Of a DNA stretch of 64,000 nt, positions 1,631 to 59,511 are shown piece by piece. The translations under genes and the position numbers were made by a program. The stretch is taken from assembly GCA_001779925.1 (NCBI GenBank), contig MFEK01000007.1, positions 4,108 to 68,107 of the forward strand, read 5' to 3'. This stretch comes from Candidatus Doudnabacteria bacterium RIFCSPHIGHO2_01_FULL_46_14 (lineage in GTDB: Bacteria; Patescibacteriota; Doudnabacteria; UBA920; 2-01-FULL-46-14). The notes below the pieces were generated by a model. The model had not been told where the DNA came from and searched no databases. It was given only the letters and a program-made list of their open reading frames with translations. Position 1 is the stretch's first letter; the number at the start of each line of letters is the position of its first letter.

Positions 1631-1640
1631 ATGTGTTTTT

Positions 1641-9823: not shown

Positions 9824-9929
9824 TTGTTTGTATTTTTTACCCCGTTAGAAATCCACGTTAATAATTGAACTCTTAAAATTATTCTTAAAATAAACTACAT
9901 TCCCGCTCAAGAAAGATCGACATAGATTT

Positions 9930-10208
9930 CTAACTGGGTAAATTCAATTTTATGCCGGGATATTTGGCGAAAACCGGATTCAAAATATTTTTTACGATCG
10001 CGCCGGAGAGCGCGATGTATTCGTCAACGAGTTTCTGAAGAATCGCCTGAGCATTATTTTCATCAATGCTGAGAACCTCTCCCTTGTCGCTGAGCTTCAA
10101 GCCCGCGACGTTTGTTGCTTTGCGAATGGCAATCTCCGGACCGAGAATATCCATTTGTTTGCTGATAATCTCCTCAATGAGTTTTTTGTAATCCTGGTCG
10201 ATAGCCAT
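9930..10208 (-). CDS. Hypothetical protein, likely co-transcribed with the response regulator
   Basis: 92 aa immediately downstream of the 10209..10613 gene. Confidence 0.3.
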   Translation of the reverse strand: MAIDQDYKKLIEEIISKQMDILGPEIAIRKATNVAGLKLSDKGEVLSIDENNAQAILQKLVDEYIALSGAIVKNILNPVFAKYPGIKLNLPS

Positions 10209-13073: not shown

Positions 13074-13811
13074 TTATTTTTTCGGCAATGCCGACGTATC
13101 CGCCATAGGGACTGCGGCAACGGGCATCTCCAATTTACCCTCATTAACTGCAGCCGCAACCGCATCGCACATTAGGCTGATGGCTTTTATTGAATCATCG
13201 TTGCTGGGAATGACATAATCAATATCTTCCGGGTCAGAATTTGTATCCAGGAGGCCGATCACTTTGATTTTGGTCTTTTGCGCTTCTGTGACCGCGATCT
13301 TGTCATGATTAATATCCACCGCAAAAATCGCTTCAGGAAGTTTTTTTAGATCCTTGATGCCTTCAAAAAGATTGGCCAGTTTGGAGATCTCGCGCTCGAT
13401 GAGCAGTCGTTCTTTTTTGATATATTTTGTCTCAAAATCCGGACTCACTGCCAATTTCTGCAGCCGTTCCAATTTCTTGATGGTCTTCTGGATGGTTTTA
13501 AAATTGGTAAAAGTCCCGCCCAGCCAGCGGATCGTGACATAAGGCATGCCGCAAGAGACAGCGGCTTTCTTGACTGCGTCCTTTGCCTGGCGTTTGGTAC
13601 CGACAAACAATACCTGGCCGCCTTTTTTTGCAACTTCCCGCACGTGGTCGAGCGCCTTTTTCAGCTGTTCGAGAGTTTTTTCGAGATTGATAACGTGGAT
13701 GCGGTTGCGAGTAGTAAAAATGTACCGCTGCATTTTCGGATTCCACCGGCTGGAGAGATGTCCAAAATGCACCCCTGCTGTGAGCAGTTCTTCTAGTGTT
13801 GGGTAAGTCAT
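13074..13811 (-). CDS. rpsB: 30S ribosomal protein S2
   Basis: LLTAGVHFGHLSSRWNPKM..., VDINHDKIAVTEAQKTKIKVIGLLDTN. Confidence 0.9.
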   Translation of the reverse strand: MTYPTLEELLTAGVHFGHLSSRWNPKMQRYIFTTRNRIHVINLEKTLEQLKKALDHVREVAKKGGQVLFVGTKRQAKDAVKKAAVSCGMPYVTIRWLGGTFTNFKTIQKTIKKLERLQKLAVSPDFETKYIKKERLLIEREISKLANLFEGIKDLKKLPEAIFAVDINHDKIAVTEAQKTKIKVIGLLDTNSDPEDIDYVIPSNDDSIKAISLMCDAVAAAVNEGKLEMPVAAVPMADTSALPKK

Positions 13812-14437: not shown

Positions 14438-15487
14438 ATGAATTCAAATTATCAATCCATCCTCGACGAATACTCTGATATTCAAAAAAAACTCTCCGAA
14501 GCTTCTGACGGTGAGCAGTTGCGAATATTGGGTAAACGGCAAAAAGAATTGGATAAGGTAGTCAAAAAAATTCAAGAACTGAACGAAATAGAAAAACAGT
14601 TGCAAGAAAACGAAAAATTACTCAAAGATGAGGAGTTAAAAAATATTGCCGAAGAAGAGAAGCAAATCCTTAATTCTAAAATCTTACTTCTTAATTCTGA
14701 ACTTCAAAAAGCCCTAATCCCCCGAGATCCGCTCGACGAAAAAAACGCCATCCTGGAAATCAGGGCTGCTGCCGGCGGCGATGAATCCGGGCTATTTGCC
14801 GCGGAGCTGTTTCGCATGTATCAAAAATATTCCGAATCAAAGAGCTGGAAATTCTTTATTCTTTCGTCGAACCACACCAGCGTCGGAGGGTTCAAAGAAG
14901 TTATTTGTGAAGTCCGAGGCGTAGGATCGTATGGACATTTAAAATATGAGTCGGGCGTACACCGCGTTCAGCGTGTCCCGGAAACCGAAAAATCCGGCCG
15001 GGTCCATACCTCCACCGTGACTGTAGCGGTTCTCCCGGAGCTCGAGGAAAAAGATTTTGAAATAGACCCCAACGATTTAAAAATGGAGGCAACCACCTCA
15101 TCCGGCCACGGCGGACAGTCAGTCAACACAACCTATTCAGCGATCCGAATCACCCATATTCCTACGGGAATTATGGCCCAGTGCCAGGATGAACGGTCGC
15201 AGGTGCAAAACAAAGAAAAAGCCATGCAGGTTATCCGCGCGCGTGTTTACGAATACGAGCAGGAAAAAAAGAACAAGGAACTGCGCGAAAAACGCCTCTC
15301 GCAGATCGGCACTGGGGATCGTAGTGAGAAAATCCGCACCTACAATTTCCCGCAGGACCGCGTAACGGATCACCGCATCAACCAGAATTTTGGCCAAATA
15401 AACAATCTCATGGAAGGCAATATTGAACCGGTCATCCAGGCGCTGATTGCCGAGGATCAAAAGAGAATGTGGGAGTCAAAGAAATGA
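14438..15487 (+). CDS. prfA: Peptide chain release factor 1
   Basis: GGQ motif ([11 protein letters not shown]), RF1-type [22 protein letters not shown]. Confidence 0.9.
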
Positions 15488-16398
15488 CAATCCGGGAAGC
15501 CTTCGTTTGGACGGAAAAAAAAATAAATAAGGCAGATTCACCTCAGTTAGATGCTGAGGTTCTTTTGTCACATACCATAAAAAAATCCAAAGAATTCCTT
15601 TTTGCCAATCCGGACTTCAAACTTTCTAGCTTACAGTTTTCCATTTACAGGTCACTAATTCAGAAGCGCGATAGGCACTGGCCGGTCTCTTACCTCATCG
15701 GCCATAAAGAATTCTACGGCTTGGATTTCAAAGTCACACCCCATGTCTTAATTCCAAGACCGGAGACGGAATTGCTGGTAGAACTCGCGATTCAAAAGAT
15801 AAAAAACAAGCGATTAGCGATTAGAAATATCCTCGACATCGGCACTGGAAGTGGCTGCATTATCACAAGCATTGCTGTCATTGCGAGCCAGAGGCGAAGC
15901 AATCTCAAATTCTATGCGACGGATGTTTCAAATTCCGCTTTGAAAATTGCGAAGTCAAACGCACGTCGTCATAGCGTCGCAAAAAAAATAAAATTCCTCC
16001 ACAGCAATTTACTCTCAACCCTACCAGCTACAGCCTACAAGCTACCATCTCTGATTCTCGCCAACCTCCCCTACCTTACCCCTTCGCAATATAATTCGAA
16101 TCTTGATCTAAAACACGAACCACGCGCGGCATTGGTCGCAGGCCCAGATGGACTGAAATATTACCGGAAATTGTTTCGACAAATTCGTAACTCCCCCAAC
16201 CCCTCTTACCCTAAGAGGGGAACTCCTCCCCTTAGCCTAAGGGGAGGTAGGGAGGGGTTATTGACCCTCCTGCTGGAACATGACCCGTCGCAAACCTCCA
16301 AACTAAAGTTTCTCACCAAACAGTATTTTCCCCAGGCCAAACTGAAATTCCACCGCGATTTATCCGGTCTCAATCGAGTTCTAGAAATAAATCTCTAA
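15469..16398 (+). CDS. prmC: Release-factor glutamine methyltransferase PrmC/HemK, carrying an in-frame repeat insertion
   Basis: [13 protein letters not shown] motif, NLPY catalytic motif, LLLEHD tail. The family A palindromic element at 16189-16262 is translated in frame. Confidence 0.8.
16189..16262. repeat. GC-rich palindromic element (family A) inside prmC, in frame
   Basis: aactcccccaacccctcttaccctaagaggggaactcctccccttagcctaaggggaggtagggaggggtt. The first module is near-identical to 30089-30122 in dnaE; both encode [11 protein letters not shown]. Confidence 0.8.
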
Positions 16399-16964: not shown

Positions 16965-18059
16965 ATGGACGACAAAATCCGGCTAGGACTCACCTTTGAT
17001 GACGTACTTTTAGAGCCCAGAGAATCTGGGGTGGTGAGAGACGGTGTCCGGCTCGAAACAAAACTCACAAAGAAAATAAGATTACAAATTCCGATTCTTT
17101 CCGCAGCCATGGATACGGTATCTGAAACCGCCATGGCTGTTTCGTTGGGTAAATTGGGCGGCATGGCTGTCATCCACCGCAATTGTTCCATTGAGGCCCA
17201 GGTTAAAATGGTTCGAGACGCCAAAAAACATGACGTTCTTGTGGGCGCTGCTGTTGGCTCTTATGATCTCGAGCGGGCCAAGGCCCTCGACAAAGCTGGC
17301 GCGGATGTAATCGTGGTAGACACAGCTCACGCGCATAATTTGCAAACTATCGCAGGCGCAAAACAAATTAAAAAATCAATTCGAGCAGAGCTGATCGTCG
17401 GCAATATCGCCACCAGCGAGGCGGCCTCGGAACTAGTCAAATTTGCTGATGCCATCAAGGTCGGCATTGGCCCTGGCTCCATCTGCACCACACGCGTGGT
17501 GGCCGGCATTGGCGTTCCCCAACTCACCGCGATTTTGGATGTGGTAAAAATCGCGAACAAAAAAAATATTCCGGTGATTGCTGACGGTGGTATGAAATAT
17601 TCCGGAGACATTGTGAAGGCTCTTGCCGCTGGCGCTTCTACTGTAATGCTTGGTTCTATGCTAGCGGGTACAAAAGAGGCGCCGGGGCAAGTCGTTAAAA
17701 TTGACGGGAAAGAATTCAAATCCTACCGCGGCATGGGCTCTCTCGGTGTAATGCACGGCGGTAAATCTTCTGATAGATATTTTCAAAAGAACCCCCTCTT
17801 CATCTCCCCCTTATTAAGGGGGAGAAAGAGTGGGGGTTATGTGCCGGAAGGCGTGGAGGCCGTGACGCTTTACAAAGGAGAATTACAAGACGTAATTTTC
17901 CAGATTACCGGAGGCCTTGCAAGCGGCATGGGCTACATTGGCGCGCGCACCATTGCCTATATGCCAAAAAGGGCCAAATTCATACGGATAACAAACGCTG
18001 GTCTCAAAGAGTCTCACCCCCATTCTATAACAATAATTAAGCGTTCACCCAATTATTAA
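16965..18059 (+). CDS. guaB: IMP dehydrogenase/GMP reductase family enzyme (short form lacking the CBS subdomain), with a small in-frame repeat insertion
   Basis: [11 protein letters not shown] catalytic loop, ...SSDRYFQ...GYVPEGVE. A 15-aa insertion ([15 protein letters not shown]) is encoded by the palindromic element at 17792-17837. Confidence 0.75.
17792..17837. repeat. GC-rich palindromic hairpin element inside guaB, in frame
   Basis: accccctcttcatctcccccttattaagggggagaaagagtgggggt. Confidence 0.75.
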
Positions 18060-18065
18060 TGAAAA

Positions 18066-18150
18066 ATGTAAATATCAAAGATCAAAGTGACAGTGTAAAA
18101 TTTTAAAATTTTTAATTGTCATTTTCCATTTTGATTTTTCAATTTTAAAT
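18066..18150. repeat. AT-rich palindromic intergenic element, copy 1
   Basis: aatgtaaatatcaaa...tgacagtgtaaaattttaaaatttttaattgtcatttt; a second copy lies at 48400-48480. Confidence 0.7.
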
Positions 18151-19270: not shown

Positions 19271-20908
19271 ATGATTTACGTTCTTGATTTCGGTTCTCAA
19301 TACTCCCATCTCATTACTCGCCGCATACGCGAGCTCGGCGTACTTGCCGAATTGGTCGCGCCCAATATTTCTCTGGATAAACTGAAATCCGCAGACGGCA
19401 TTATCCTCTCCGGCGGACCGCAAAATCTTTCGGACAGCGACGCGCTCCGCGTGGACAAAAAAATCTTTAACCTAGGCGTTCCTATCCTTGGCATCTGCTA
19501 TGGCATGCAGCTGACGGCTTACGAGCTGGGCGGCCGCGTGAAGGCGGGTAAAAAACGCGAATACGGGCCGACTGACATTAAAATAATAAAACCCGGCAAA
19601 CTGTTTGCTGGACTCAAGCCAAACCAGCGAACCTGGATGTCACACGGAGACCAGGTGGTCAGACTGCCGAAAGGATTCACAAAAATTGCCGGCTCAGTAA
19701 ACTGTCCGATCGCGGCTATGTCCAACCAGGCAAAAAACATCTACTGCCTGCAATTTCATCCTGAGGTCATCCATACCGAGAATGGGAAAAAAATCCTGGA
19801 AAATTTTATAAAAATCACGGGAGCGGCCAGAACCTGGTCAATGAAAGATTTTATTGCTAAAGAAATCGACAAAGTAAAAAAACAAATTGGCAGAGATAAA
19901 GCGATCTGCGCGCTGTCCGGCGGCGTGGATAGCGCAGTGGCTGCAAAAATAGTTTCCAAGGCTATCGGCAAAAATCTCATTTGTATTTACGTGGACACTG
20001 GCCTCATGCGCCTTGGCGAAACCGCGCAGATCAAAAAGTCATTCAAAAACCTCAGAGTCGTTAATGCCGAGAAAGAATTTCTTGCCAAGCTCAAAGGCGT
20101 CACTGACCCAGAAAAAAAGCGTAAAACTATTGGCGAGCTGTTTATTCGGATTTTTGAACGCGAGGCAAGGAAATTGTCACCCCCACCTAGCCTCCCCCCT
20201 CGAGCCTACCCCAAAAGCGAGTACGCTTTCGGGGGACCCCGGCAAGGGGGAGGAAAAAGAAACAAATTCCCCTCCCTTACTGTGCCCGCCGTAGCTTCAC
20301 GCGAAGGCTGGGAGGGGAGGGTGAAATTTCTTGTCCAGGGCACGCTGTATACTGACGCGGTAAGCTCTGGCGTATCAATTGGAAAAACGGCTGCAGTCAT
20401 CAAATCGCATCACAATGTCGGCGGTCTTCCTAAAAAACTGGGGTTCAAACTCATCGAGCCGCTCCGTGATTTGTACAAATACGAGGTCAGAAAACTCGGC
20501 CGCGAGCTCGGCCTTCCCAAATCGATTTATAACCGCCAGCCCTTCCCCGGTCCCGGGCTCGGCGTCCGAGTGATCGGCGAGGTCACAGAAGAAAAACTGG
20601 AACTCCTGAAAAAAGCAGACGCTATTGTCTGCGAGGTAATTGAGAAATCCAAAATCGCCGTTGATCAATATTTTGCCGTACTGCCAGATATTCGGTCAGT
20701 CGGGGTTCAGGGTGATTTTCGCACCTATGGCTGGCCAATCATTATCCGCGCGCTGAATACCGCTGACTACCTCACGGTCCACTGGGCAAAAATTCCCCAT
20801 CCGATTCTGGAAAAAATCTCCACCCGCATCACCAACGAGGTTCGCGGCATAAACCGTGTGGTTTACGATATCACCTCCAAACCCCCTGCCACGGTGGAGT
20901 GGGAATAA
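19271..20908 (+). CDS. guaA: GMP synthase (glutamine-hydrolysing) carrying a ~150-nt in-frame repeat insertion
   Basis: Class I GATase N-terminus (GICYGMQL), PP-loop SGGVDSAV, C-terminal KPPATVEWE. A 48-50 aa insertion lies between REARKLS and KFLVQGTLY relative to canonical GuaA. Confidence 0.9.
   Translation: MIYVLDFGSQYSHLITRRIRELGVLAELVAPNISLDKLKSADGIILSGGPQNLSDSDALRVDKKIFNLGVPILGICYGMQLTAYELGGRVKAGKKREYGPTDIKIIKPGKLFAGLKPNQRTWMSHGDQVVRLPKGFTKIAGSVNCPIAAMSNQAKNIYCLQFHPEVIHTENGKKILENFIKITGAARTWSMKDFIAKEIDKVKKQIGRDKAICALSGGVDSAVAAKIVSKAIGKNLICIYVDTGLMRLGETAQIKKSFKNLRVVNAEKEFLAKLKGVTDPEKKRKTIGELFIRIFEREARKLSPPPSLPPRAYPKSEYAFGGPRQGGGKRNKFPSLTVPAVASREGWEGRVKFLVQGTLYTDAVSSGVSIGKTAAVIKSHHNVGGLPKKLGFKLIEPLRDLYKYEVRKLGRELGLPKSIYNRQPFPGPGLGVRVIGEVTEEKLELLKKADAIVCEVIEKSKIAVDQYFAVLPDIRSVGVQGDFRTYGWPIIIRALNTADYLTVHWAKIPHPILEKISTRITNEVRGINRVVYDITSKPPATVEWE
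20176..20325. repeat. GC-rich composite palindromic element (family A) inserted in frame in guaA
   Basis: cacccccacctagcctcccccctcgagcctaccccaaaagcgagtacgctttcgggggaccccggcaagggggaggaa...ccgccgtagcttcacgcgaaggctgggaggggagggtgaaa; near-identical to the intergenic copy at 50675-50755. Confidence 0.85.
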
Positions 20909-23293: not shown

Positions 23294-23440
23294 TTTACGA
23301 ATTACTAATGAGTACGAATATACGAATTCGTACATTCGTAATTGATTCGTTATTCGTAAAACAAATAATAGCAAATAAAAAACCCGCAGTCAAGGGGCGG
23401 ATTTGTAAATTCGTATTGATTAGTAATTCGCAGGGATCAG
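23294..23440. repeat. TACGAAT-heptamer palindromic element (family B), empty copy plus partial extra arm
   Basis: ttacgaattactaatgagtacgaatatacgaattcgtacattcgtaattgattcgttattcgtaaa; arms are reverse complements of each other. Confidence 0.8.
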
Positions 23441-24076: not shown

Positions 24077-24484
24077 TTAGAATTTTTGCAGAAATTGGGC
24101 GGGGGTGAGGATTTTTATGCCCCGAAAAATTTTCAAGTTCAAAAGTTCCAGGTCGCCGGTAACGATAAAATCGCAGCGACCTTCCGCTGCTGCTTCCAGT
24201 ACCCGATTGTCGTCTTCGTCCCGCAGTTCCCTCAGAATAAAGCTCGGGTGAACAAATTGAAATGCCTGCTTTATTTCAGATTCAGTTTGGATCAGACGCT
24301 CGTTTGAGAATTTGAATTTCTTTGCAAAAACATCCAAAACTTCTGCGAGCAGGATAGGAGATGTGATCGCTATGAAACGGCTCTCGATGAGCAAATCAAT
24401 TATCTGCTGTGGTTTGCCGCCGTAAAGAAACGCGGAAATGAGAATATTGGAATCAAGAACGGCCTTGACTTTGCCGTTTACCAT
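24077..24484 (-). CDS. vapC: PIN-domain toxin (VapC-like)
   Basis: VLDSNILISA (acidic D in PIN motif 1), ...TGD.. near the C-terminus, 135 aa. Confidence 0.7.
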   Translation of the reverse strand: MVNGKVKAVLDSNILISAFLYGGKPQQIIDLLIESRFIAITSPILLAEVLDVFAKKFKFSNERLIQTESEIKQAFQFVHPSFILRELRDEDDNRVLEAAAEGRCDFIVTGDLELLNLKIFRGIKILTPAQFLQKF

Positions 24485-24718
24485 GTCGATATTCGTAAAC
24501 TATCCGGTTTACATCTTCCTCGCTTTTAATCCCCATTTTCCGCCCGATTTTTTGGCCATAGGCGAACAGGTCTGCCCATTTTTCTTTCTGAGCCAAATAA
24601 ACCCGGACTGCTTCACGAATAAATTCACTGCGATTTTGATACTCGCGCTTAGCTGTTTGATCTATTTTCCTCACCAGCTGATCTGGCAAAGCAATATTGA
24701 AAGTTTTAGTCTTCACCC
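24453..24718 (-). CDS. vapB: Ribbon-helix-helix (CopG/RHH) antitoxin, overlapping vapC start
   Basis: FNIALPDQLVRKIDQTAKREYQNRSEFIREAVRVYL, an RHH beta-strand/helix pattern; GTG start; 32-nt overlap with the toxin gene. Confidence 0.6.
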
Positions 24719-24832
24719 CGTTTTAGAAATAAATAATTAATCGCTCAACCCCACTGAAACACCATGCGTTTCTAACGGGATTCATATACATATATTGTAT
24801 ATGATACATACATAATTGTCAAGCCCACTCAC

Positions 24833-26799: not shown

Positions 26800-26886
26800 A
26801 GCTACGAACTACGAATTTTTTACGAAAATACGAAAAAGAACTGATTTGTTCGTAATTTCGTAGCCTTATTTCGTAATTTCGTAGCC
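26800..26886. repeat. TACGAAT-heptamer palindromic element (family B), empty copy directly upstream of dnaE
   Basis: gctacgaactacgaattttttacgaaaatacgaaaaa...gttcgtaatttcgtagcc (right arm duplicated). Confidence 0.8.
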
Positions 26887-26887: not shown

Positions 26888-29800
26888 ATGCAATTTACGC
26901 ATCTTCACGTCCATTCACACTATTCCCTACTCGATGGGTTATCAAAAATCCCGGATCTTATAAGCGCCGTGCAAAAAAAAGGCATGGAGGCCGTGGCTCT
27001 GACAGACCATGGGGCGCTTTATGGTGCGCTCGAGTTTTACAAAGCAGCCCGACGCTCGGGTGTAAAGCCGATTATCGGCCTCGAGGCTTATGTGGCGCCA
27101 GGTAGCATGCTGGAAAAAAAGACTCCGGCCGACGCGGATTATTTTCACATGATCTTGCTGGCCCGCAATAACGAAGGCTACCAGAACCTTTTAAAGCTCG
27201 TTACCGCATCACACCTTGAAGGGTACTATTACAAACCACGCATTGATAAAAAATTACTCTCACAGTACTCATCCGGCCTGATCGGCCTATCAGGGTGTCT
27301 GCGCGGCGAGATTGCCCGGGCGGTCGCGGCCGGCAATTTTGATTCTGCAAAAAGAATCGCCCTGGAATACCAAAATATATTTGAGCCGGATGGTTTCTAC
27401 CTGGAACTGCAGAGAAACCTCGAGGAACCTCAGCAACAAACCGTCAACGACGGCCTAATCAAAATTTCCCGCGAGACTTCGATTCCGATCGTGGCAACCA
27501 ATGATGCGCACTACCTCAACCCGGAAGATAACGCGGCCCAGGACATCCTGGTTTGCATCGGCACCGGAACAACCGTAGAACAAACTGACCGTCTGGATAT
27601 GAGAAAAATGAAACTGCACCTGGCCTCGCCGGAAGAAATGGCAGAGCTATTTTCTGATATTCCCGAAGCGATCGCTAACACGCAAAAAATCGCGGACATG
27701 GTAGACCTGACGCTTTCCTTGGAAAAACGCCATTTCCCAAGCTTCCCGGTACCGGAAGGACAAAACGCGGAAGACTATCTGGAAAAGCTTTCGCTTAGAG
27801 GATTGAAAGAAAAAAAACCAGACCGCGAGCTCCCCGCAGAAATTTTGACCCGGCTGAACTATGAGCTTGATGTCATCAAAAAGAAAGGATACGCCGGGTA
27901 TTTCCTGGTAGTCGCGGATTTTGTAAACTGGTCGCGTGCGCGCGGCATTATCAGCACCACGCGCGGCTCTGCGGCCGGCTCTCTGGTGGCTTACGCGCTG
28001 GGCATTACGACCCTGAACCCTATAGAATACAAACTGCCGTTTGAGCGCTTTCTTAATCCCTACCGCCCCACTCCCCCCGATATTGATATGGATTTTGCCG
28101 ATAATCGCCGAGACGAGGTTTTAAATTATGTCAGCGACAAATACGGCCGCGATCGGGTTGCGCAAATCGTAACGTTTGGAACCATGATGGCCAGGGCTGC
28201 GGTACGCGATGTTGGCCGCGCTTTAGGCGTTGCGTATTCGAAATGCGACCGAATCGCGAAGATGATCCCCTTAGGCAAGCAGGGTTTCCACATGACCATA
28301 GAAAAAGCTTTGACGCTTGCGCCGGAGCTCAAAGAAGCCTTTGACCGCGACCAGGAGACGCGAAACCTCATCGAGCTTGCGCGCAAAGTCGAAGGCTGCG
28401 CCCGGCATGCTTCAGTCCACGCCGCCGGCGTGGTCATTGCCCCGACAAGCTTGTCCTCCTATACCCCGCTGCAGCTTGACACTGACAACAAAAACATCAT
28501 CACTCAATATGACATGCACTCTGTGGAAGAAGCGGGCCTTGTAAAAATGGATTTTCTGGGGATCCGCAACCTTTCCATTTTAGGAAATGCGGTCGAGGTG
28601 GTCCGCACTTCACGCGGTATTGATATTGATCTGGGAAAAATTCCGCTTGATGATCCGAAAACCTACAAACTGTTGTCCCTAGGGCGCACCATGGGAGTGT
28701 TTCAGCTTGGAGGAAGCGGTATGACCAAATATCTTGTGGATCTCAAACCCACGAACATCTTTGATATCATGGCCATGATATCTTTGTACCGCCCCGGCCC
28801 CATGGAATCGATTCCGGAATTTATCCAGAGAAAACACAATGCCGCGCTGATCACTTATATTGATCCGCGGCTCAAAGAAATTTTGGATATGTCCTATGGA
28901 GTCATCACTTACCAAGAAGACGTACTGCTGACCGCAATCACTGTTGCGGGATACACCTGGGAAGAAGCCGACAAGCTCAGAAAAGCAATGGGCAAAAAAA
29001 TCCCAAAAGAGATGATGGCCCAAAAAGAAAAATTTATCCAAGGAGCGATCACGGGAGGCTTGTCCTCAGAAAAGGCGGTCAAGCTTTGGGCTCTCATCGA
29101 ACCGTTTGCGGCTTACGGCTTTGGCAAAGCGCACGCTGCCTCTTACGCAATGGTAGCCTACCAAACGGCTTATATGAAAGCCAATTTTCCGGTCGAGTTC
29201 ATGGCCGCGGTCATGACTGCCGAGGCTGGGGATAATGAAAAAGTTGCGCAGGCAGTCAATGAATGCGCCAGTCTGGAGATTGAGGTCCTGCCGCCTGATG
29301 TAAACGAATCCCTGGCCAATTTTACCGCCATAAACGATCGCCAGATTCGCTTCGGCCTCAATGCCATAAAAAATCTTGGCTCAGACGTCATTGAGACCAT
29401 TATCGCCGAACGCGCTAAAGGAGGTGAATTTGCCTCGCTGGGTGATTTTGTTCGCCGCATGAAAACCCGCAATTTCAATAAAAAATCCTGGGAAGCGCTG
29501 GCGAAAAGCGGTTCGCTGGACAGGTACGGAGAGCGCAACCAATTGCTTTTGAACACCGAGATCATCCTCGAATACGCAAAGGCCGAACAAAAACAGCTGG
29601 CCTCCGGCCAATCCATGCTCCTCGGCGGCGCCACTGCCGCGGCTCAGGAACTGCTATTGAGGAACGCGCCGCAGGCCTCAGACCAGGAAAAACTTTCCTG
29701 GGAGAAAGAGCTGCTCGGCCTGTATGTTTCCTCGCACCCTCTGCGCAGCCATCGCGCGCTTCTGGAAAAATACTGCAAGCCGATTAATGTCCTTTCCATT

Positions 29801-30508
29801 GCGGACGAAAACCAGTATTTCACTATCGGCGGCATCATCACCCGCATCCAAAACATTCTCACCAAAAAAGGCGATCAGATGTGTTTTGCGGATATTGAGG
29901 ACGAAAGCGGCAAGCTGGAGCTGGTTGTGTTTCCGAATGTTTATAGTGAATCCAAATCCTTGCTCGCGGTAGACCAAATCCTTCTCACGAGAGGCAAGAT
30001 TTCCGATAAAGATGGGGAAATAAAACTGCTGGTGGATTCTATGAAATTGATTGGAGACGCGGATTTGGAAAAATGGGTTAACACTCGTAACTCCCCTAAC
30101 CCCTCTTACCCTAAGAGGGGTATTGCCCCCCACCTAACCTCCCCCACTGCCTACTCCGCCGAAGTGGCTACGGAGGCCGGACAGGGGGGAGGAAAAAATG
30201 CAGGGGATTTCCCTCCCCAGAACAGGACTTACTCTTCTATCTTCCCTCCCCCCGGTGAGGAGGGACTGAGGGAGGGGGGGCGCGTTCTCAAAATCAAAAT
30301 CCCCAAAACCGCAGACCCGCAGGTGTTTAACAAATTAAAAATCGTGTTCAACAAATTCCCAGGCGAGGTGGCCGTGTCCCTCGTCATCCCCGACCGCGAA
30401 GGAACGGAACGGGAAGTGAAAACTGACTTTAAAGTAGACAGCACCGACCTGTTCAAAACCGAGTTGCGGGAACTCTTACGCCAGAGCATCCAGCACGTCA
30501 AGTCTTGA
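26888..30508 (+). CDS. dnaE: DNA polymerase III alpha subunit with a ~190-nt in-frame repeat insertion near the C-terminus
   Basis: PHP domain (HLHVHSHYSLLDG), polymerase core, OB-fold region. The C-terminal region contains translated family A palindromic elements at 30089-30281. Confidence 0.9.
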   Translation: MQFTHLHVHSHYSLLDGLSKIPDLISAVQKKGMEAVALTDHGALYGALEFYKAARRSGVKPIIGLEAYVAPGSMLEKKTPADADYFHMILLARNNEGYQNLLKLVTASHLEGYYYKPRIDKKLLSQYSSGLIGLSGCLRGEIARAVAAGNFDSAKRIALEYQNIFEPDGFYLELQRNLEEPQQQTVNDGLIKISRETSIPIVATNDAHYLNPEDNAAQDILVCIGTGTTVEQTDRLDMRKMKLHLASPEEMAELFSDIPEAIANTQKIADMVDLTLSLEKRHFPSFPVPEGQNAEDYLEKLSLRGLKEKKPDRELPAEILTRLNYELDVIKKKGYAGYFLVVADFVNWSRARGIISTTRGSAAGSLVAYALGITTLNPIEYKLPFERFLNPYRPTPPDIDMDFADNRRDEVLNYVSDKYGRDRVAQIVTFGTMMARAAVRDVGRALGVAYSKCDRIAKMIPLGKQGFHMTIEKALTLAPELKEAFDRDQETRNLIELARKVEGCARHASVHAAGVVIAPTSLSSYTPLQLDTDNKNIITQYDMHSVEEAGLVKMDFLGIRNLSILGNAVEVVRTSRGIDIDLGKIPLDDPKTYKLLSLGRTMGVFQLGGSGMTKYLVDLKPTNIFDIMAMISLYRPGPMESIPEFIQRKHNAALITYIDPRLKEILDMSYGVITYQEDVLLTAITVAGYTWEEADKLRKAMGKKIPKEMMAQKEKFIQGAITGGLSSEKAVKLWALIEPFAAYGFGKAHAASYAMVAYQTAYMKANFPVEFMAAVMTAEAGDNEKVAQAVNECASLEIEVLPPDVNESLANFTAINDRQIRFGLNAIKNLGSDVIETIIAERAKGGEFASLGDFVRRMKTRNFNKKSWEALAKSGSLDRYGERNQLLLNTEIILEYAKAEQKQLASGQSMLLGGATAAAQELLLRNAPQASDQEKLSWEKELLGLYVSSHPLRSHRALLEKYCKPINVLSIADENQYFTIGGIITRIQNILTKKGDQMCFADIEDESGKLELVVFPNVYSESKSLLAVDQILLTRGKISDKDGEIKLLVDSMKLIGDADLEKWVNTRNSPNPSYPKRGIAPHLTSPTAYSAEVATEAGQGGGKNAGDFPPQNRTYSSIFPPPGEEGLREGGRVLKIKIPKTADPQVFNKLKIVFNKFPGEVAVSLVIPDREGTEREVKTDFKVDSTDLFKTELRELLRQSIQHVKS
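30089..30281. repeat. GC-rich composite palindromic elements (family A) inside dnaE, in frame
   Basis: aactcccctaacccctcttaccctaagagggg...ccccccacctaacctccccc...ggacaggggggaggaaaaa...cttccctccccccggtgaggagggactgagggaggggggg. Confidence 0.85.
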
Positions 30509-33911: not shown

Positions 33912-34862
33912 ATGAAGTTGCCAAAGCTCATCATCATAACCGGACCCACCGCCTCCGGAAAGACTGCCTTGTCTTTAAAATTGGCCAAAAAAATTCACGG
34001 CGAAATAATCTCAGCTGACAGCCGGCAAATCTATCGCGGCATGGACATCGGGACGGCAAAACCGTCCCGAGATCAAAGATCAAAAATCAAAGATCAAAAT
34101 TTTTATTCCAAAGGGATTCGCCACCACCTCATTGATATTCGTAATCCTGATCAGCCCTATACTCTGGCTGAGTTCAAACGCGATGCCATAAAAGCGATAA
34201 ATACCATTGCGAAACGCGGCCGCGTCCCCTTTCTGGTCGGCGGCACAGCTCTCTACATCTGGGCTATTCTGGAAAATCCGGAAATACCCGAGGTTAAACC
34301 GAATAGCAAATTTAGAAATCTGCTTGAACGACAGTTACAGCGACACGGCGTTCAATACCTCTACAAAAAACTAATTCTAAAAGACCCCGAAGCCGCCTGC
34401 ATCATTGATCCAAAAAATCCCCGCAGAATCATCCGCGCTCTGGAAATAATGCACGCTACAGGCAAACCGTTTTCGGATTCTCGAAAAAAAGGAGCATCGC
34501 TCTTTGATTGCATGGTTTTGGGAATGAAACTGCCGCCCGCAAAATTGAAAAAAATAATCAAGCTTCGCGCAGCCCAGCAGTTACGCTCCAATCTCATTTC
34601 CGAAGTCCGAAGATTAACTAAAAAATATGGCATACAAAGGCAAGCCTTTGATGCTATAGGCTACCGCGAAATAATTTCTCATTTGAATGGGCAAATTTCC
34701 AAAGCCGAAGCTCTAAAACAAATCCAAAACAACACCTGGCATTTTGCTGGCCGCCAGATGACCTGGTTTAAAAAACTACCGATTGAGTGGATCAAAAATT
34801 ACAAGCAGGCTGAAACGAAAATCAAAACGCATTTATTCCTCCCCCTTGAAGGGGGAGGTTAG
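33912..34862 (+). CDS. miaA: tRNA dimethylallyltransferase
   Basis: P-loop GPTASGKT, DSRQIYRGMDIGTAKP. The last 9 codons and stop lie in a palindromic element. Confidence 0.85.
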   Translation: MKLPKLIIITGPTASGKTALSLKLAKKIHGEIISADSRQIYRGMDIGTAKPSRDQRSKIKDQNFYSKGIRHHLIDIRNPDQPYTLAEFKRDAIKAINTIAKRGRVPFLVGGTALYIWAILENPEIPEVKPNSKFRNLLERQLQRHGVQYLYKKLILKDPEAACIIDPKNPRRIIRALEIMHATGKPFSDSRKKGASLFDCMVLGMKLPPAKLKKIIKLRAAQQLRSNLISEVRRLTKKYGIQRQAFDAIGYREIISHLNGQISKAEALKQIQNNTWHFAGRQMTWFKKLPIEWIKNYKQAETKIKTHLFLPLEGGG

Positions 34863-34924
34863 GTGGGGATGGAGAATTTAAGTACTTCACCCCTCCCTTA
34901 ATCCCTCCCCCTCAAGGGGAGGGA
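34837..34924. repeat. GC-rich palindromic hairpin elements (family A), three hairpins overlapping the miaA 3' end
   Basis: ttcctcccccttgaagggggagg...cacccctcccttaatccctccccctcaaggggaggg. Confidence 0.8.
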
Positions 34925-34932
34925 AAATTTCT

Positions 34933-44702: not shown

Positions 44703-45560
44703 TTACTGCACTGCTTCGGGCTCGTTGTTTTCGTCAATGGTGACTACATCGCCGAGCTGAGTATCGGTTTCGACCGGCGTATCTTTTACGACCGGACTCT
44801 TTATTATTTTCTTACTCTTTGCAGGAAAACTGGGAACACTTGAGGTGGTTTTTGGCGTTGTCGTAGCCTCAGTCACATTTTCTTCTCCAGCGCTCACTGT
44901 TGTGCCCTTGACCTCTTCACTGGTCAATTTCGTTATAGATTCTTTGGTGCTAATGATGGCATGCTCTACTGCCTCTTTGACCTCGCTCGTCGCGCCAGAA
45001 CCCACGCTGGTCAAAACTTTTTCCTGTTCAACCGCCACCTCAGTAGCCTCATTTGTCAGCTCTGGTCTGACCTCAAAAACAGCCACCACCTCTACCATTT
45101 CTTCGGTTGAAGTCTTTAAAGCCGCCAAAGTATCCTCGACAATCTTTGTGTCTTTCTTGGCTTCCACGAGAGTTTTTACTTCCGCAAGTCTGCGCTTGGC
45201 ATGTCTGATGCTAACCTTGACCTTGGCTTCATCAGTGACGGCAGCAACCTTTTCCACCTGTTCAGCTACGATCTTGACCGGATACAGGGTTTCACCAGGC
45301 TGGGCATTGGCGACCGACCCTACCATAGTCAAAGCCAAAATCACCACCATGACAGTAGCCCCGATTCTGGCAAGAGTCCGCGGCAAAAATAGGTATTTCC
45401 ATACCGGCAGGCTGATTTCGGCTTTGTCCTGCAGTCTCGCGGCTATTATATAATTATGGACGCGCTGCCAAACCTTTTCTTTATCAGAAAAAGGCAAAAG
45501 CTTCCGCGGCAAACCCGCGGACATTTGGCTTATTAATTTTTCGAACTCATTATCATTCAC
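44703..45560 (-). CDS. Putative anti-sigma factor (cytoplasmic N-domain, one TM helix, extracytoplasmic helical domain)
   Basis: Downstream of the ECF sigma gene; TM at ~60-85; conserved 5'-UTR box upstream. Confidence 0.45.
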   Translation of the reverse strand: MNDNEFEKLISQMSAGLPRKLLPFSDKEKVWQRVHNYIIAARLQDKAEISLPVWKYLFLPRTLARIGATVMVVILALTMVGSVANAQPGETLYPVKIVAEQVEKVAAVTDEAKVKVSIRHAKRRLAEVKTLVEAKKDTKIVEDTLAALKTSTEEMVEVVAVFEVRPELTNEATEVAVEQEKVLTSVGSGATSEVKEAVEHAIISTKESITKLTSEEVKGTTVSAGEENVTEATTTPKTTSSVPSFPAKSKKIIKSPVVKDTPVETDTQLGDVVTIDENNEPEAVQ

Positions 45561-45633
45561 CCCGTTAGAAATCCTATGTTAATTATTTTACTTTAAGTCT
45601 CGATTTTTCCTACCACTCCCGTTAGCGAGATTT

Positions 45634-46203
45634 CTAACGGGGTTCATATTTTAAAATCTTTTTTAGTTCACTAATGGCTCGATGCTGGATAACGCGGATC
45701 GCGCCTTCTGATTTGCCAAGTATCTTGGCGATATCAGGATTGTCGAGCTCCTCGAGAAATTTGAGCTTGATGACGATTTGTTGTTCTTCGGTTAGCTGGC
45801 CGAGATTTTCCAAAAAGGCTTTTTGCTGAAAAGACAGATTCGTCCGGTCAATCATATTGTCTTCGTACTGCAGGACATTCTCCAAAAGACTGATGTCCAC
45901 GTTCTCTTTGCGGGAACGGTAATAATCGATCACCAGGTTTCTGGCGATCTGGTAAATCCAGCCGTTGAAGGCTTGGGCTTCCTGGATTTTATCCAGCTTG
46001 TCCCAGACTTTGATAAACACCTCTGAAACCAGGTCTTCGGCTGCTTCCTTGTGATTGACCCGGAAATAGATAAATCTATAAACCTTTTGAAAGTACAGAT
46101 CGTAAATCTGGCCAAAAGCTATCTCATCGCCATTTTTGGCTCTAAGGACGAGCGCTTCTAGGTTTTGAGAATTGCTGTTTTGGTCCACAAATTGCTGGAT
46201 CAA
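45634..46203 (-). CDS. ECF-type RNA polymerase sigma factor
   Basis: Sigma-70 region 2 (FIYFRVNHKEAAEDLVSEVFIKVW) and region 4 HTH (ELDNPDIAKILGKSEGAIRVIQHRAISELK). Confidence 0.8.
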   Translation of the reverse strand: MIQQFVDQNSNSQNLEALVLRAKNGDEIAFGQIYDLYFQKVYRFIYFRVNHKEAAEDLVSEVFIKVWDKLDKIQEAQAFNGWIYQIARNLVIDYYRSRKENVDISLLENVLQYEDNMIDRTNLSFQQKAFLENLGQLTEEQQIVIKLKFLEELDNPDIAKILGKSEGAIRVIQHRAISELKKILKYEPR

Positions 46204-48399: not shown

Positions 48400-48480
48400 T
48401 CAAAATGTAAATATCAAAATGTAAAATGACAGTGTTTAAATTTTAAAATTTTTAATTGTCATTTCGATTTTTACACTTTG
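48400..48480. repeat. AT-rich palindromic intergenic element, copy 2 (upstream of recG)
   Basis: aaaatgtaaatatcaaaatgtaaaatgacagtgtttaaattttaaaatttttaattgtcatttcga. Confidence 0.7.
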
Positions 48481-50612
48481 CATTTTACATTATCATGTTA
48501 TCAATAAATGATTCTGTCTCCAAACTCCACCTTGTTAAACCTGAGCACCTTGAGGCCTTATCCAAGCTTGGCATTAAAACCGTAAAAGATTTACTGTATC
48601 ATTTTCCCCGGGACTGGCAGGATCTTTCGGAAATTAAAAAGATTTCCGAGATACGGCCAGGGGAAAAGATCAGCATCAAGGCTCGAGTTAAACATCTGAG
48701 CATTCCTGGCTTTCCTTTTCGCAGGGTCAAGATCACGGAAGCCCTGCTCGAGGATGAAACCGGAAATGTGGTCGCGATCTGGTTTAACCAGCCGTACATA
48801 AAAAATTCGCTTCGCTTGGGAAATGAATATTATTTCAGCGGCAAGGGTCAGATTTACGCCACAAAAAAACAGCAAACCCTCCAGCTGACGCATCCCACAT
48901 TTGAGATGGTACGCGAGGAAACAATTCATGTTGCCGGTCTTATCCCTGATTACCCGCTCACAGAAGGTATAACCCAAAAACAAGTCCGCTATTGGCTTAA
49001 ACAAGCTCTGGAATCTTTGCCGCAGCTCATAGAGATCCTGCCGGAAAAGTTGAAGAAAAAAATGAAGCTTATCGGGCACACGGAGGCAATAAAAAATCTA
49101 CATTTCCCTGATGATGCAGCCCATCTCAAAAAAGCAAAAAACCGCCTAGCTTTTGAGGAGTTATTTCTGTTTCAGCTGGCTTTCCAAAGCTATAAAAAAA
49201 CGTTAAAGTGCCTGCCGGCACCGGCAATCCAATTCGACAAAAATCTGGTAAGCCAATTCGTCGAGAAACTTTCGTTTCAGCTCACTGCCTCCCAGCGCCT
49301 CTCTGCCTGGGAAATCCTCAGCGACATGGCAAAGCCCCACCCTATGAACCGGCTCCTGGAAGGAGAGGTCGGCTCCGGGAAAACCGTAGTCGCCGGACTG
49401 GCTATGCTGGAAACGGCTACGGCCGGCTATCAATCGATATTGCTGGCACCGACGGAGATTTTGGCCTGGCAGCATTACCAAACCCTGGAAAAGCTTTTTG
49501 CGCATACTGGCATTAAGATTGCTTTGCAAACACGAAGTCATAAAATTGGGGAGATTAGGGAAATAAGGGAAGGCACGATCAAAATAATTGCAGGAACTCA
49601 TGCCCTTCTCCAAGAGCGGATCAGTTTCCATAAAATCGGTCTTTTAGTAATCGATGAACAGCACCGGTTTGGCATCAAACAGCGGCAAGCATTGCTTCGC
49701 GGACAAGCCGAGTTAGTTCCTCACCTATTAAGTATGACTGCGACCCCGATCCCGCGCACGCTCGCTCTGGCATTTTACGGAGACCTGGATATATCAAAGC
49801 TGAAGGAACTGCCCTCGGGAAGAAAAAAAGTCATCACGAAATTGGCATCGCCTGAGAATCGCGTGCTCGCCTACGAAGTTGTCAGAAAGGAATTGCAAAG
49901 AGGCCGACAGGCTTATGTGATCGTGCCGCTTGTCGGAGAAACAAGCGATTTATCACCCCTCCCTAACCCTCCTCCTCAAGGGGAGGGAAATACAAATGAA
50001 ACAAAATCAGTAATTACAGAGGTCGAAAAATTAAAAAAAATTTTCCCAGAATTCCAGATCGGCCTTCTTCATGGCAAAATGCCCGGCGAGGAAAAGAAAA
50101 AAATCATGCAAGTATTTTCCGCCAAAGGCGGATCCGCAACCGGCGGAAAAGCTCATAAAATAGACATTCTCGTTTCCACGACCGTGGTCGAGGTCGGCGT
50201 AGATGTTCCAAACGCCACGATTATGATCATCGAGAACGCAGAACGGTTCGGCTTGTCGCAGCTGCACCAACTACGCGGTCGGGTTGGAAGATCACACCTG
50301 CAGTCTTTGTGCGTGCTGTTCGCCGGCCTCTATTCCGAAACGACACGGCAGCGCCTGGAAGCAGTCGTGAATAGCAATGACGGATTTGAGCTTGCGGAAA
50401 TTGATTTGAAGATGCGCGGCGCCGGCGAAATACTCGGCACCAAGCAGTCCGGTTTTATTCCCTTCAAAATCGCCTCGCTCAGCGACGAAAAAACAATCGA
50501 ATCAGCAAAAAAAGAAGCCCTGGCTCTTTTGGAGCAGGACCCTGAACTTGAGAATTATCCAATGCTGATGAAAAAGGTTGCGGAGATTTCAAAAGAAGCC
50601 CATCTGGAATGA
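48456..50612 (+). CDS. recG: ATP-dependent DNA helicase RecG with small in-frame repeat insertion
   Basis: Wedge/OB N-domain, helicase motifs GSGKT, DEQHRFG, TATPIPR, QLRGRVGR. A 13-aa insertion SPLPNPPPQGEGN is encoded by the palindromic element at 49954-49988. Confidence 0.9.
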   Translation: MSFRFLHFAFYIIMLSINDSVSKLHLVKPEHLEALSKLGIKTVKDLLYHFPRDWQDLSEIKKISEIRPGEKISIKARVKHLSIPGFPFRRVKITEALLEDETGNVVAIWFNQPYIKNSLRLGNEYYFSGKGQIYATKKQQTLQLTHPTFEMVREETIHVAGLIPDYPLTEGITQKQVRYWLKQALESLPQLIEILPEKLKKKMKLIGHTEAIKNLHFPDDAAHLKKAKNRLAFEELFLFQLAFQSYKKTLKCLPAPAIQFDKNLVSQFVEKLSFQLTASQRLSAWEILSDMAKPHPMNRLLEGEVGSGKTVVAGLAMLETATAGYQSILLAPTEILAWQHYQTLEKLFAHTGIKIALQTRSHKIGEIREIREGTIKIIAGTHALLQERISFHKIGLLVIDEQHRFGIKQRQALLRGQAELVPHLLSMTATPIPRTLALAFYGDLDISKLKELPSGRKKVITKLASPENRVLAYEVVRKELQRGRQAYVIVPLVGETSDLSPLPNPPPQGEGNTNETKSVITEVEKLKKIFPEFQIGLLHGKMPGEEKKKIMQVFSAKGGSATGGKAHKIDILVSTTVVEVGVDVPNATIMIIENAERFGLSQLHQLRGRVGRSHLQSLCVLFAGLYSETTRQRLEAVVNSNDGFELAEIDLKMRGAGEILGTKQSGFIPFKIASLSDEKTIESAKKEALALLEQDPELENYPMLMKKVAEISKEAHLE
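49954..49988. repeat. GC-rich palindromic hairpin (family A) inside recG, in frame
   Basis: cacccctccctaaccctcctcctcaaggggaggg. Confidence 0.8.
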
Positions 50613-50616: not shown

Positions 50617-50765
50617 TTTCCCCTCCCTTGATGGGAGGGGTAAGGGAAGGGTGAAATTTAATTATGCCACCCCCCACCTATAACCTCCCCCATCGAGCCT
50701 ACCCCAAAACCGAGTACGCTTTTCGGAGACCCCGGCAAGGGGGAGGAACTAAATTCAGGGGGATA
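50617..50765. repeat. GC-rich composite palindromic element cluster (family A), intergenic
   Basis: cccctcccttgatgggaggggtaagggaagggtgaaa...caccccccacctataacctcccccatcgagcctaccccaaaaccgagtacgcttttcggagaccccggcaagggggaggaa; 80-nt core about 90% identical to the guaA insertion. Confidence 0.85.
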
Positions 50766-51766
50766 ATTCCAAAGAATACAAATTACCCGCGCCGTCAATA
50801 TAAAAGAGGATGTCCTTGAATGGATGCAAAAACGCGTCGCGGACAGGACCGCCGGGAAAACTGCCCCAGTCTTTGACATCGCCGGTTCTGGTATTTTCTT
50901 CTTTCAGCAAACCATTGGTCGCGAATATCACACCGCCGCTATCCCTGCTCCATATCGCAAAATCGGTACTGGCGATGCTAAAATCCTTTCTCTGCTTGGT
51001 GGCAAAATCATAGAACCAAAATACCAAAACCCCTGCCTTGTTTTCGCTGACCAAAAGCTTGCTACCGTCCGGAGAAAACCGAGTATTTTCATACCTGCCG
51101 TTATCCGCAATATTGCTGAATGTTGACGCGGCCAGATCAACATGAATCAAAGGCGAGGTTGTGGCGTTTGCAAACATCACAAGCTCCAGCTTGCGCGGAT
51201 GCGCGACAAGTCGATAGTCGGACCGGAACAGGTCGCCGATTTTGGCAAAATTACTGCTGTTGATATCAGAAATTTTCAGTTCGTGATTATCGCCTATTAC
51301 CCAATCATAGGCAATTCTGGCATCGCCGGCGAGGATAACCGGCTCGCGAATATTGTCCGGATACTGCGAAAGCTGTTTATCACTGGCGCGAACATAAGTG
51401 TAGCGAAGGTGTCCGTCAATATTTTGCGCAACGATGAAATCACTGCCTTTTTCCTGCCATTGTACGTCCGAGGGATTTTTTATGGTTTCCGGAAGGATAA
51501 ACTCTTCGCGTGCTCCAGATTCAAGATTTACGCTAAGGATTTTACCATCCAGAGTCAGGTACCATACCCGCTCTCCGTTGAATGAAGGAACAGCCGAGAC
51601 AACCTCTTGGGCTAGTATTTTTTGGGCAGGGTTCTCGTCAGAAACAGTATTCTCAGGCGCAGGAACCGGTACGGTATCGCGATTGCGGCGAATATAAAGA
51701 AAACCGAGACTCAATATCAGCAGTATAGTGAGAATGACCGTGGTGATTATAAAAATTTTTCTCATT
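50755..51766 (-). CDS. Hypothetical membrane-anchored protein, possible beta-propeller repeats (start MRKIFII)
   Basis: N-terminal TM then repetitive beta-rich sequence. Flanked on both sides by family A elements; the ORF-track N-terminal extension into the repeat was trimmed. Confidence 0.4.
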
Positions 51767-51783
51767 GTACATCTCCTGTCTTT

Positions 51784-51866
51784 TCCCCTCCCTTGATGGG
51801 AGGGGTTGGGGGAGGGTGATAAATTAGACAGTTCACCCCACCTTACCTCCCCCCTCAAAGAGGGAA
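51784..51866. repeat. GC-rich palindromic element cluster (family A), intergenic
   Basis: cccctcccttgatgggaggggttgggggagggtgataaa...caccccaccttacctcccccctcaaagaggg. Confidence 0.8.
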
Positions 51867-51914
51867 GAACTAAAACAATATTGGGAATTATATACAAAGC
51901 TACCCTAAAGTAAA

Positions 51915-58759: not shown

Positions 58760-58762
58760 GGT

Positions 58763-58828: not shown

Positions 58829-58830
58829 CT

Positions 58831-59508: not shown

Positions 59509-59511
59509 AAT

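Follow-up and report, generated by a model that had tools for sequence, protein, structure and literature searches.

Palindromic repeats lying in frame within genes are best known as a curiosity of Rickettsia, where the Rickettsia palindromic elements (RPEs) of class RPE-1 are longer than the units described here, at about 100-150 bp. To our knowledge RPEs are confined to this genus, and we know of no enzyme that mobilises them. They go back to Ogata et al. (2000), as far as that work is related in PMC3733652. RPE-4 and RPE-6 have been classed by Di Nocera et al. as repetitive extragenic palindromic (REP) sequences with a CGTC tag, and intragenic REPs were found by the same authors to be in excess in replication and repair genes (PMC3733652); the intragenic copies, many of them in such genes, encode 20-80 amino acids (PMC3733652, PMC3337134). 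Miniature inverted-repeat transposable elements, or MITEs, derive from insertion sequences by internal deletion (PMC10969869), and VSR/DUF559 proteins have been grouped with a group I intron homing endonuclease (PMC3424549). In the present work, a 64,000-nt stretch (the window) of the genome of Candidatus Doudnabacteria bacterium RIFCSPHIGHO2_01_FULL_46_14, a member of the candidate phyla radiation (CPR), was analysed (contig MFEK01000007.1, positions 4,108 to 68,107). Two of its genes, dnaE and prmC, hold members of a single family of small, structured and dispersed DNA repeats, at 30086-30281 and 16186-16263, respectively. These repeats are insertions which lie in frame in disordered loops, and the family crosses phyla and is tightly associated with DUF559 genes. 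The best overall explanation, which we regard as probable, is that dispersed repeats have settled in permissive loops and have spread as non-autonomous derivatives of a DUF559 cassette.

The dnaE gene (26888-30508, + strand) is an open reading frame (ORF) for the 1206-residue alpha subunit of DNA polymerase III, with the Pfam domains PHP, DNA_pol3_alpha, DNA_pol3_finger and HHH_6 and an OB fold. The prmC gene (15469-16398, + strand) encodes a release-factor glutamine methyltransferase (Pfam PrmC_N and methyltransferase); its start in the public annotation is probably 15484 (304 aa), and the protein is 100% identical to P0108, which is named Candidatus Doudnabacteria bacterium RIFCSPHIGHO2_01_FULL.... 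The initial annotation of this DNA had reported a 34-nt module, identical in the two genes and placed at 16190-16223 in prmC. The string which it quoted, aactcccctaacccctcttaccctaagagggg, has 32 nt and is exact at 30089-30120, and its prmC position was off by one, the match at 16189-16220 covering 31 of 32 nt. The sole mismatch, T30097 against C16197, is synonymous (CCT/CCC). With up to three mismatches allowed, the string was found twice in the window and never in 100 dinucleotide shuffles. The similarity is also wider than the quoted string, since 35 of 36 nt agree from TCGTAAC to GAGGGG (30085-30120 and 16185-16220), and a 47-nt register of the shared stretch (family D15) shows 89% identity. 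As had been described, both copies lie in frame within long ORFs, where they encode the same 12-residue peptide, and more hairpins follow the module in dnaE, where three units fill 30086-30281. The further claim that one mobile sequence had landed in two unrelated genes holds in so far as one repeat family is found in frame in both, and in guaB, guaA, recG and one hypothetical gene of the window as well. From this dispersal, we infer that the repeats are or were mobile.

The basic unit of the family is about 35 nt long and consists of a tag, a C-rich tail (~7-10 nt), a linker of 2-4 nt and a perfect hairpin of 8-10 bp with a loop of 3-5 nt, of which the 5' arm is all pyrimidine; in some units a second hairpin is nested in the loop. 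The tag reads (C/A)(G/A)TAAC in one flavour and TCAC in the other, and units are found singly, as inverted pairs or in arrays. They were located with a tail-plus-hairpin scanner which required perfect stems; a sequence-only nhmmer profile of the module, which it replaced, had recovered just the two known copies because of the variable stems. In a set of 156 non-redundant units from about 60 sources, the copies differ in their stems through paired C:G to T:A changes. Tail and pyrimidine arm form a mirror repeat, as in TAA-CCCCTCC-CTA-CCTCCCC-TTA, and the T of the tail moves with the T of the arm; the mirror matches amount to 6.12 of 7 positions, where the pairing of tails with arms from a different stem class gave 5.34 +/- 0.06. 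A homopyrimidine mirror repeat beside its own inverted repeat would fit the requirement for an intramolecular Y*R-Y triplex, and tail-tail pairing in doublets is an alternative reason for the symmetry. A gathering scan of the whole window against Rfam returned tRNAs only, and E-value scans of the dnaE and prmC loci gave chance miRNA and lncRNA matches far below threshold.

In dnaE, unit 1 (30086-30121, + strand) is the module in common with prmC and has the tag and tail CGTAACTCCCCTA followed by the hairpin ACCCCTCTTA-CCC-TAAGAGGGGT, with a perfect 10-bp stem (I2). Unit 2 (30124-30192, + strand; I5, with members of D1 and D4) has the tail TGCCCCCCACCTAA and the stem CCTCCCCC/GGGGGAGG (30138-30145 / 30185-30192), and its 39-nt loop holds a nested hairpin; similar long-loop copies are present at 1642-1708, 20177-20253 and 50667-50746. 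Unit 3 (30241-30281, - strand) is inverted, its hairpin TCCCTCC..GGAGGGA (30243-30265) preceding the G-rich tail CTGAGGGAGGGGGGGC (I7, I8). The degenerate C/G-run sequence between units 2 and 3 (30193-30240, + strand) may be what is left of the native linker, or else a unit that has decayed, and an alternative hairpin pairs 30186-30196 with 30208-30218 at this spacer (I3). The predicted RNA fold of the region has an energy of -97.1 kcal/mol and is more stable than that of shuffled sequence (z -3.13), with the structure closed by pairing of the unit 3 tail with the unit 2 tail. On the + strand the whole insert encodes DnaE residues 1067-1132, and only one of the six frames is open across it. 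The three units make up the whole variable linker from the OB fold to the C-terminal domain of ~70 aa, and DnaE orthologues (51-66% identity) have unrelated linkers of other lengths. In the AlphaFold2 model of the DnaE C-terminal fragment, residues 163-228 (DnaE 1067-1132, the exact repeat stretch) are coil with a predicted local distance difference test score (pLDDT) of 41-58, and the domains on both sides, the OB fold and the C-terminal alpha/beta domain, have a pLDDT of about 90-96. The upstream dnaE sequence GGAAAAATGGGTTAACAC had been likened to the unit tail in two of the unit-bearing loci from other genomes (L090 and L091); this likeness is probably due to chance, as LEKW(V/A)N is kept in element-free orthologues.

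The prmC insert (16186-16263, + strand) is a doublet with the tails facing outward. Unit A (16186-16220, + strand) consists of CGTAACTCCCCCAA and the hairpin CCCCTCTTA-CCC-TAAGAGGGG, and unit B (16225-16263, - strand) of the hairpin CCTCCCCTTA-GCC-TAAGGGGAGG and TAGGGAGGGGTTA. The RNA is predicted to fold more stably than shuffled sequence (-44.6 kcal/mol, z -3.15), and in this fold one tail pairs with the other and both hairpins are enclosed, so that the termini CGTAACTCCCC...GGGGAGGGGTTA(T/C)G form MITE-like terminal inverted repeats. The alignment of PrmC to HemK of Thermotoga maritima (1NV8/1SG9) ends at residue 239, where the element starts, and the segment from YYRxLF to LLEHDP has 43 aa here against 23-25 aa in most of 120 CPR PrmC orthologues. 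The AlphaFold2 model of PrmC has a mean pLDDT of 93, with residues 242-264 of the insert modelled as coil at 55-67.

The same loop of PrmC is a hot spot, since related species show it empty or filled with inserts that seem to come from different repeat families. Among the Doudnabacteria-like genomes (P0109-P0136) it is empty (25 aa) in some, and other PrmC loops hold inserts resembling at least three other widespread repeat families (VIARS...ARNDK, RHP...DSRLRGND and CHSEGTPEES...PQDDN). In an Uhrbacteria prmC (991-2082 of its locus, MGDU01000020.1) a doublet of the same family occupies the same loop and is inverted relative to the gene (IHNPSQPPLILRGG...IPPLRVRGGEGEL), which implies an independent insertion or an inversion in situ. 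The Doudnabacteria-like PrmC P0131 reads the hairpin in another frame, giving PPLRLRGG instead of the 11-residue peptide found here. Because orthologous hairpins sit in other frames and in the opposite orientation, the alternative on which the initial annotation would have been given up, a functional peptide motif conserved in both protein families, is refuted, and the conservation is seen to be at the level of nucleotide sequence and structure. Comparison of one empty with five filled PrmC loops (orthologues with 52-59% aa identity) placed the junctions at C(A/G)T|AAC and GTTA|, with no clear target duplication. A duplication of TA or TTA was considered as a candidate and found no support, as the conservation reaches past TAAC to (T)CGTAAC and the divergence of the orthologues is too great.

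The family occupies 11 loci of the window, with about 22 units and 1062 nt (1.66%). Six loci are intragenic and five intergenic. Besides prmC and dnaE, the guaB gene for IMP dehydrogenase (16965-18059) carries at 17789-17842 (- strand) just one hairpin, TCTCCCCCTT-ATT-AAGGGGGAGA, which has a tail on either side, and the alignment of GuaB with the T. maritima enzyme (1VRD) has a 12-column target gap in the flap between RYxQ and VPEG. The insert of the GMP synthase gene guaA (19271-20908) at 20177-20325 (+ strand) is a tails-out doublet of two long-loop units (D1, D4, D8) and adds about 47 residues, with query residues 104-150 unmatched in PDB 7SBC between chain positions 332 and 334. In recG (48456-50612) the single unit at 49953-49990 (+ strand; D1, D16), TCACCCCTCCCTAA with the hairpin CCCTCCTCC-TCAA-GGGGAGGG, encodes SPLPNPPPQGEGN and coincides with a 15-column gap in the alignment to T. 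maritima RecG (1GM5). A further tails-out doublet (CGTAAC...GCGTTAT; 61143-61225, + strand) lies in a called gene for a hypothetical protein (60602-61390, - strand) which has no Pfam match. The intergenic copies are a single long-loop unit at 1640-1710 (- strand; D4) and four doublets with the tails facing inward, at 6225-6308 (D1, D16), between the convergent miaA and gatB genes at 34836-34926 (D6, D16), between recG and the convergent gene 50755-51765 at 50618-50748 (D6, D8) and upstream of that gene (- strand) at 51783-51869 (D1, D6). The final ~8 codons and the stop codon of miaA (33912-34862) come from the repeat unit 34838-34872. In the pairs within genes of the window the tails point outward (tail-hairpin, hairpin-tail), and in the four intergenic ones they point inward; both arrangements, together with alternating arrays, were found among the 94 unit-bearing loci of other genomes. 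In each intragenic doublet exactly one of the six frames is free of stop codons, and it is the one in use, as expected from selection on random insertions.

Sequences rich in C/G runs and hairpins are error-prone, and an assembly or sequencing artefact, or a chance similarity of low-complexity sequence, had to be considered. The guaA element is indeed garbled in one population contig (L096 ~13650-13800, corresponding to window 20176-20279), almost the sole place where this contig departs from the window, with 33 differences, 20 additional nucleotides and a frameshift which splits guaA; this variant looks like homopolymer or hairpin assembly noise, could be real turnover, and was not used as evidence. 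In different ENA/JGI assemblies, exactly the same 1206-aa DnaE recurs on 7 contigs and exactly the same PrmC on 15, which means that the inserts did not arise in assembly. By chance, zero matches would be expected, and the module is also present in long contigs and one complete chromosome of other phyla. Such an origin is thus extremely improbable.

It was also considered that the inserts are kept for use, either as peptide (a Pro-rich or RGG-like linker) or as RNA or DNA structure acting in translational pausing, mRNA stabilisation or termination, or supercoiling or triplex formation, with the dispersal reflecting recruitment. Across phyla, conservation of the hairpin and tail is far higher than that of the DUF559 proteins (~50% identical), no variation is seen in the prmC and guaB elements among population contigs, which are 98.6-100% identical, the intergenic copies between convergent genes are placed like terminators, and the mirror-repeat and hairpin design meets the sequence requirement of an intramolecular triplex. 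On the other hand, no peptide is conserved, the frames and the orientation vary between orthologous inserts, and PrmC orthologues at similar distance do without the insert or have unrelated repeat families in the same loop. The inserts are, moreover, predicted to be disordered, and no terminator-like T-run follows the units. Retention for a function is therefore quite unlikely to be the explanation of the family.

Outside the window the module was found in many other genomes, and the family is not specific to the CPR. An exact copy of the 21-nt hairpin CCCCTCTTACCCTAAGAGGGG is present in at least 94 DNA stretches of GTDB species representatives; chance alone would give about 0.3 occurrences in 596 Gb. 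The hosts in the CPR are Uhrbacteria, other Parcubacteria, Saccharibacteria and Dojkabacteria, and those outside it are Nitrospirota/Thermodesulfovibrionia, Gamma- and Deltaproteobacteria, Myxococcota, Dehalococcoidia (Chloroflexota), Bdellovibrionales and Opitutia (Verrucomicrobiota). The flank outside the search string (GTAACTCCCCC...) is conserved as well, over 36-37 nt at 94-100% identity in delta- and gammaproteobacterial metagenome-assembled genomes (MAGs); at this length and identity the module is present in Delta- and Gammaproteobacteria, Nitrospirota, Dehalococcoidia and several CPR lineages. No exact match of the 21-mer was found in viral contigs, which gives no evidence for a phage vector. 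A deltaproteobacterial NnrD/YjeF-like kinase (L040 3351-4196) was observed to contain an in-frame segment SPLPRWEGIKGR of the same repeat type, and translated insertions are thus not restricted to the CPR.

The ORFs of the 94 unit-bearing loci were clustered to find a recurrent neighbour of the units, and the recurrent protein was a stand-alone DUF559 protein of ~120 aa, present in 10 of the 94 loci and in different phyla. These ORFs match Pfam PF04480 with E values of 1e-29 to 3e-36 and PDB 3HRL with 3e-29, and there is a weak match to the Vsr-fold homing endonuclease I-Bth0305I (PDB 3R3P, E 0.005). All 10 genes are directly bracketed by units with the tails facing inward. On the 5' side the arrangement is hairpin-GGGGGAGTT|ATG, with the start codon within the GTTATG tag, and on the 3' side the TAA of (C)ATAAC-CCCCTCC-hairpin often serves as the stop codon. 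The association was also seen in an independent set of 80 metagenome loci, picked by DUF559 protein similarity alone and containing 62 small ORFs. A perfect C/G-rich hairpin of at least 7 bp lies in the upstream window of 70 nt in 39 of 60 cases and at the stop codon in 40 of 58, against 1 of 356 control windows, and 19 ORFs of this set begin at GAGTT|ATG. The upstream stem of the DUF559 ORFs is nearly always CCC(C)CTCTTA...TAAGAG(G)GGG, which is the stem of the dnaE/prmC module. The spacers of tails-in doublets without an ORF often start with (A)TGAAC and end with TTCG/TTCA-TAAC, resembling the codons at the two ends of the DUF559 ORF, which suggests that such doublets are internal-deletion derivatives of the DUF559 cassette. 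The DUF559 family is very large (7992 of 8000 scored candidates at E <= 1e-10), and most of the homologues lie on contigs under 3 kb, as multi-copy elements do; none of the best 120 homologues has a Doudnabacteria label. In our literature search, 25 papers were found to mention DUF559, and none of them ties it to repeats. In a Rifle metagenome contig (C687J35174_10021604, L188 1189-2736) a DUF559 ORF was observed to continue through the downstream unit into recJ as a single ORF of 515 aa, a possible fusion made by the cassette.

The units might instead be ordinary REP elements or REPINs which are moved in trans by a RAYT or TIRYT (HUH) transposase encoded elsewhere in the genome, DUF559 being incidental. 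Short palindromes that occur singly, as inverted pairs and in arrays are what is known of REPs and of bacterial interspersed mosaic elements (BIMEs), intragenic REPs are on record, notably in replication and repair genes (PMC3733652), to which dnaE and recG belong among the genes bearing inserts here, and our view of the genome is limited to 64 kb. The tag is, however, (C/A)(G/A)TAAC or TCAC, neither GTAG nor CGTC. A tblastn search with Escherichia coli RayT gave nothing significant in the window and about 650 kb of unit-bearing loci (94 stretches; best E 0.15), although distant RAYTs could be missed by it; the weak match in the deltaproteobacterial locus L040 is a PdxJ-like gene. REPINs are described as lineage-specific and vertically inherited (bioRxiv 10.1101/2024.10.14.618302), whereas the family described here spans many phyla, and the recurrent neighbour of its units is DUF559. 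Movement by a RAYT is therefore unlikely.

Spread from a DUF559 cassette, which we presume to be the parent or the engine of the repeats, could proceed as follows. The cassette would consist of two units bracketing a ~120-aa DUF559 gene (Vsr-like, PD-(D/E)xK), the gene starting within the ...GGGGAGTTATG tag and stopping within the (C)ATAAC tag. The nuclease may cut or nick at the hairpin/tag structure and thereby drive copying into new sites, and units may spread as non-autonomous derivatives of the cassette. Within genes, units survive only if they fall into the one frame that is open in a surface loop or a linker between domains, where they would be transcribed and translated as a disordered peptide rich in Pro, Gly, Arg and Ser that is tolerated by the enzyme. 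The repeated insertions into the PrmC loop may be due to the permissiveness of the loop, to a preference of the element for pre-existing hairpins, or to both.

Several points weigh against this explanation. Neither a transposition event nor a filled/empty polymorphism nor a target-site duplication came to light, and the elements are fixed in all population contigs. The intragenic doublets are tails-out and the cassette is tails-in, and either arrangement may be the mobile unit. The 64-kb window holds no DUF559 gene, and the perfect-stem requirement of the scanner biases the pair statistics towards pairing. The units beside DUF559 genes could be regulatory or terminator hairpins, or the DUF559 genes could be a favoured landing site. 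Finally, the segments are taken to be translated on the ground of ORF continuity. The broader proposal, that DUF559 genes and mirror-repeat, possibly triplex-forming hairpin units constitute an undescribed cross-phylum class of mobile element, with ORF-less derivatives in intergenic DNA and in the protein loops of the CPR, is accordingly put forward as a tentative one, which we think somewhat doubtful at present.

Other features of the window include further repeats and mobile-element genes. An IS1595-family DDE transposase gene (PF12760/PF12762) is present at 53410-54333 with AT-rich flanks; it was considered as a partner of the repeats and rejected, as its flanks and ends are AT-rich and unrelated to the C-rich repeats. 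Beside the tRNA gene at 52234-52318, a conjugation or type IV secretion-like gene block extends over ~54677-64000 and contains a VirB4/TraG-like P-loop ATPase gene (56945-58759), a TraC-like gene (58831-59508), a TrbL-like gene which runs off the window end and two PDDEXK_3 genes. This block is probably an integrated mobile element in the CPR genome, and the repeat doublet inside the gene 60602-61390 falls within it. A MITE-like family (D7/D20) with the inverted termini CACCCCGTTA(A/G)AAAT ... ATTTCTAACGGGGT, about 85 nt apart, has three to four copies (1918-2030, 9831-9943, 45551-45647 and 24758-24785). The AT-rich, intergenic 'TACGAA/TTCGTA' families D3, D5 and D10 (23294-23434, 26801-26835, 58763-58809, 59513-59627, 60046-60080, 60485-60599 and 61397-61443) occur, among other places, just upstream of dnaE and between genes of the conjugation-like block. 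The AT-rich repeat D2 is 70 nt long, contains the inverted repeat TGACA...TGTCA and lies downstream of guaB (18063-18132) and upstream of recG (48402-48479). In the toxin-antitoxin pair at 24077-24740, the PIN_3 toxin gene overlaps the gene for an RHH/HicB-like antitoxin.

This study has revealed that not even the most streamlined genomes are exempt from the shaping of proteins by repeat insertion, since six genes are affected within 64 kb, with the replicative polymerase among them. Such inserts account for some of the odd 'CPR-specific insertions' in alignments. The family also breaks assemblies and yields spurious 'hypothetical proteins' such as ...PNPSP..RGG...., and repeat segments should hence be masked in phylogenomic alignments and in gene calling. 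If the link to DUF559 is true, it would give a testable function to one of the largest uncharacterised nuclease families and an origin to a repeat family which litters groundwater and sediment MAGs. Were the units and DUF559 genes indeed a new class of element, DUF559 would be the engine of repeats by which the same loops are repeatedly rewritten and new disordered segments are created.

In comparison with the known systems, the units resemble RPEs in being palindromic repeats which a reduced genome carries in frame in many housekeeping genes that are unrelated to each other, where they are tolerated in surface regions, and in being present between genes as well. They are set apart from RPEs, by description, in having a length of about 35 nt, a TAAC/TCAC tag and a mirror-repeat tail, in occurring in many phyla and in bracketing DUF559 genes. 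With REPs (20-40 nt), BIMEs and REPINs they have in common the short hairpin with a tag at one end and the occurrence as singles, inverted dimers and clusters; unlike these, they have no GTAG/CGTC tag and no RAYT was found near them, they are distributed across phyla instead of being lineage-restricted, and their associated protein is a PD-(D/E)xK DUF559 nuclease instead of an HUH transposase. Like MITEs, they are apparently non-autonomous and short and have inverted termini, and the ORF-less tails-in doublets retain what appear to be the opening and closing codons of a longer cassette's ORF; in contrast to MITEs, no target-site duplication is seen, and the putative parent encodes a ~120-aa nuclease of restriction fold and not a DDE transposase. 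The proposed engine of this selfish element, a small Vsr-like PD-(D/E)xK nuclease, recalls the Vsr-fold homing endonucleases of the I-Bth0305I family. I-Bth0305I itself belongs to a phage group I intron (PDB entry 'Mobile intron protein'), whereas the DUF559 genes are free-standing, bracketed by hairpins and weakly similar to it, and homing would be an analogy. Hence, the kind of element is known from RPEs and intragenic REPs, and what is new is the span over many phyla in and outside the CPR, the other tags with no RAYT found, the tail mirroring the arm, the flanking of DUF559 genes and the PrmC hot spot.

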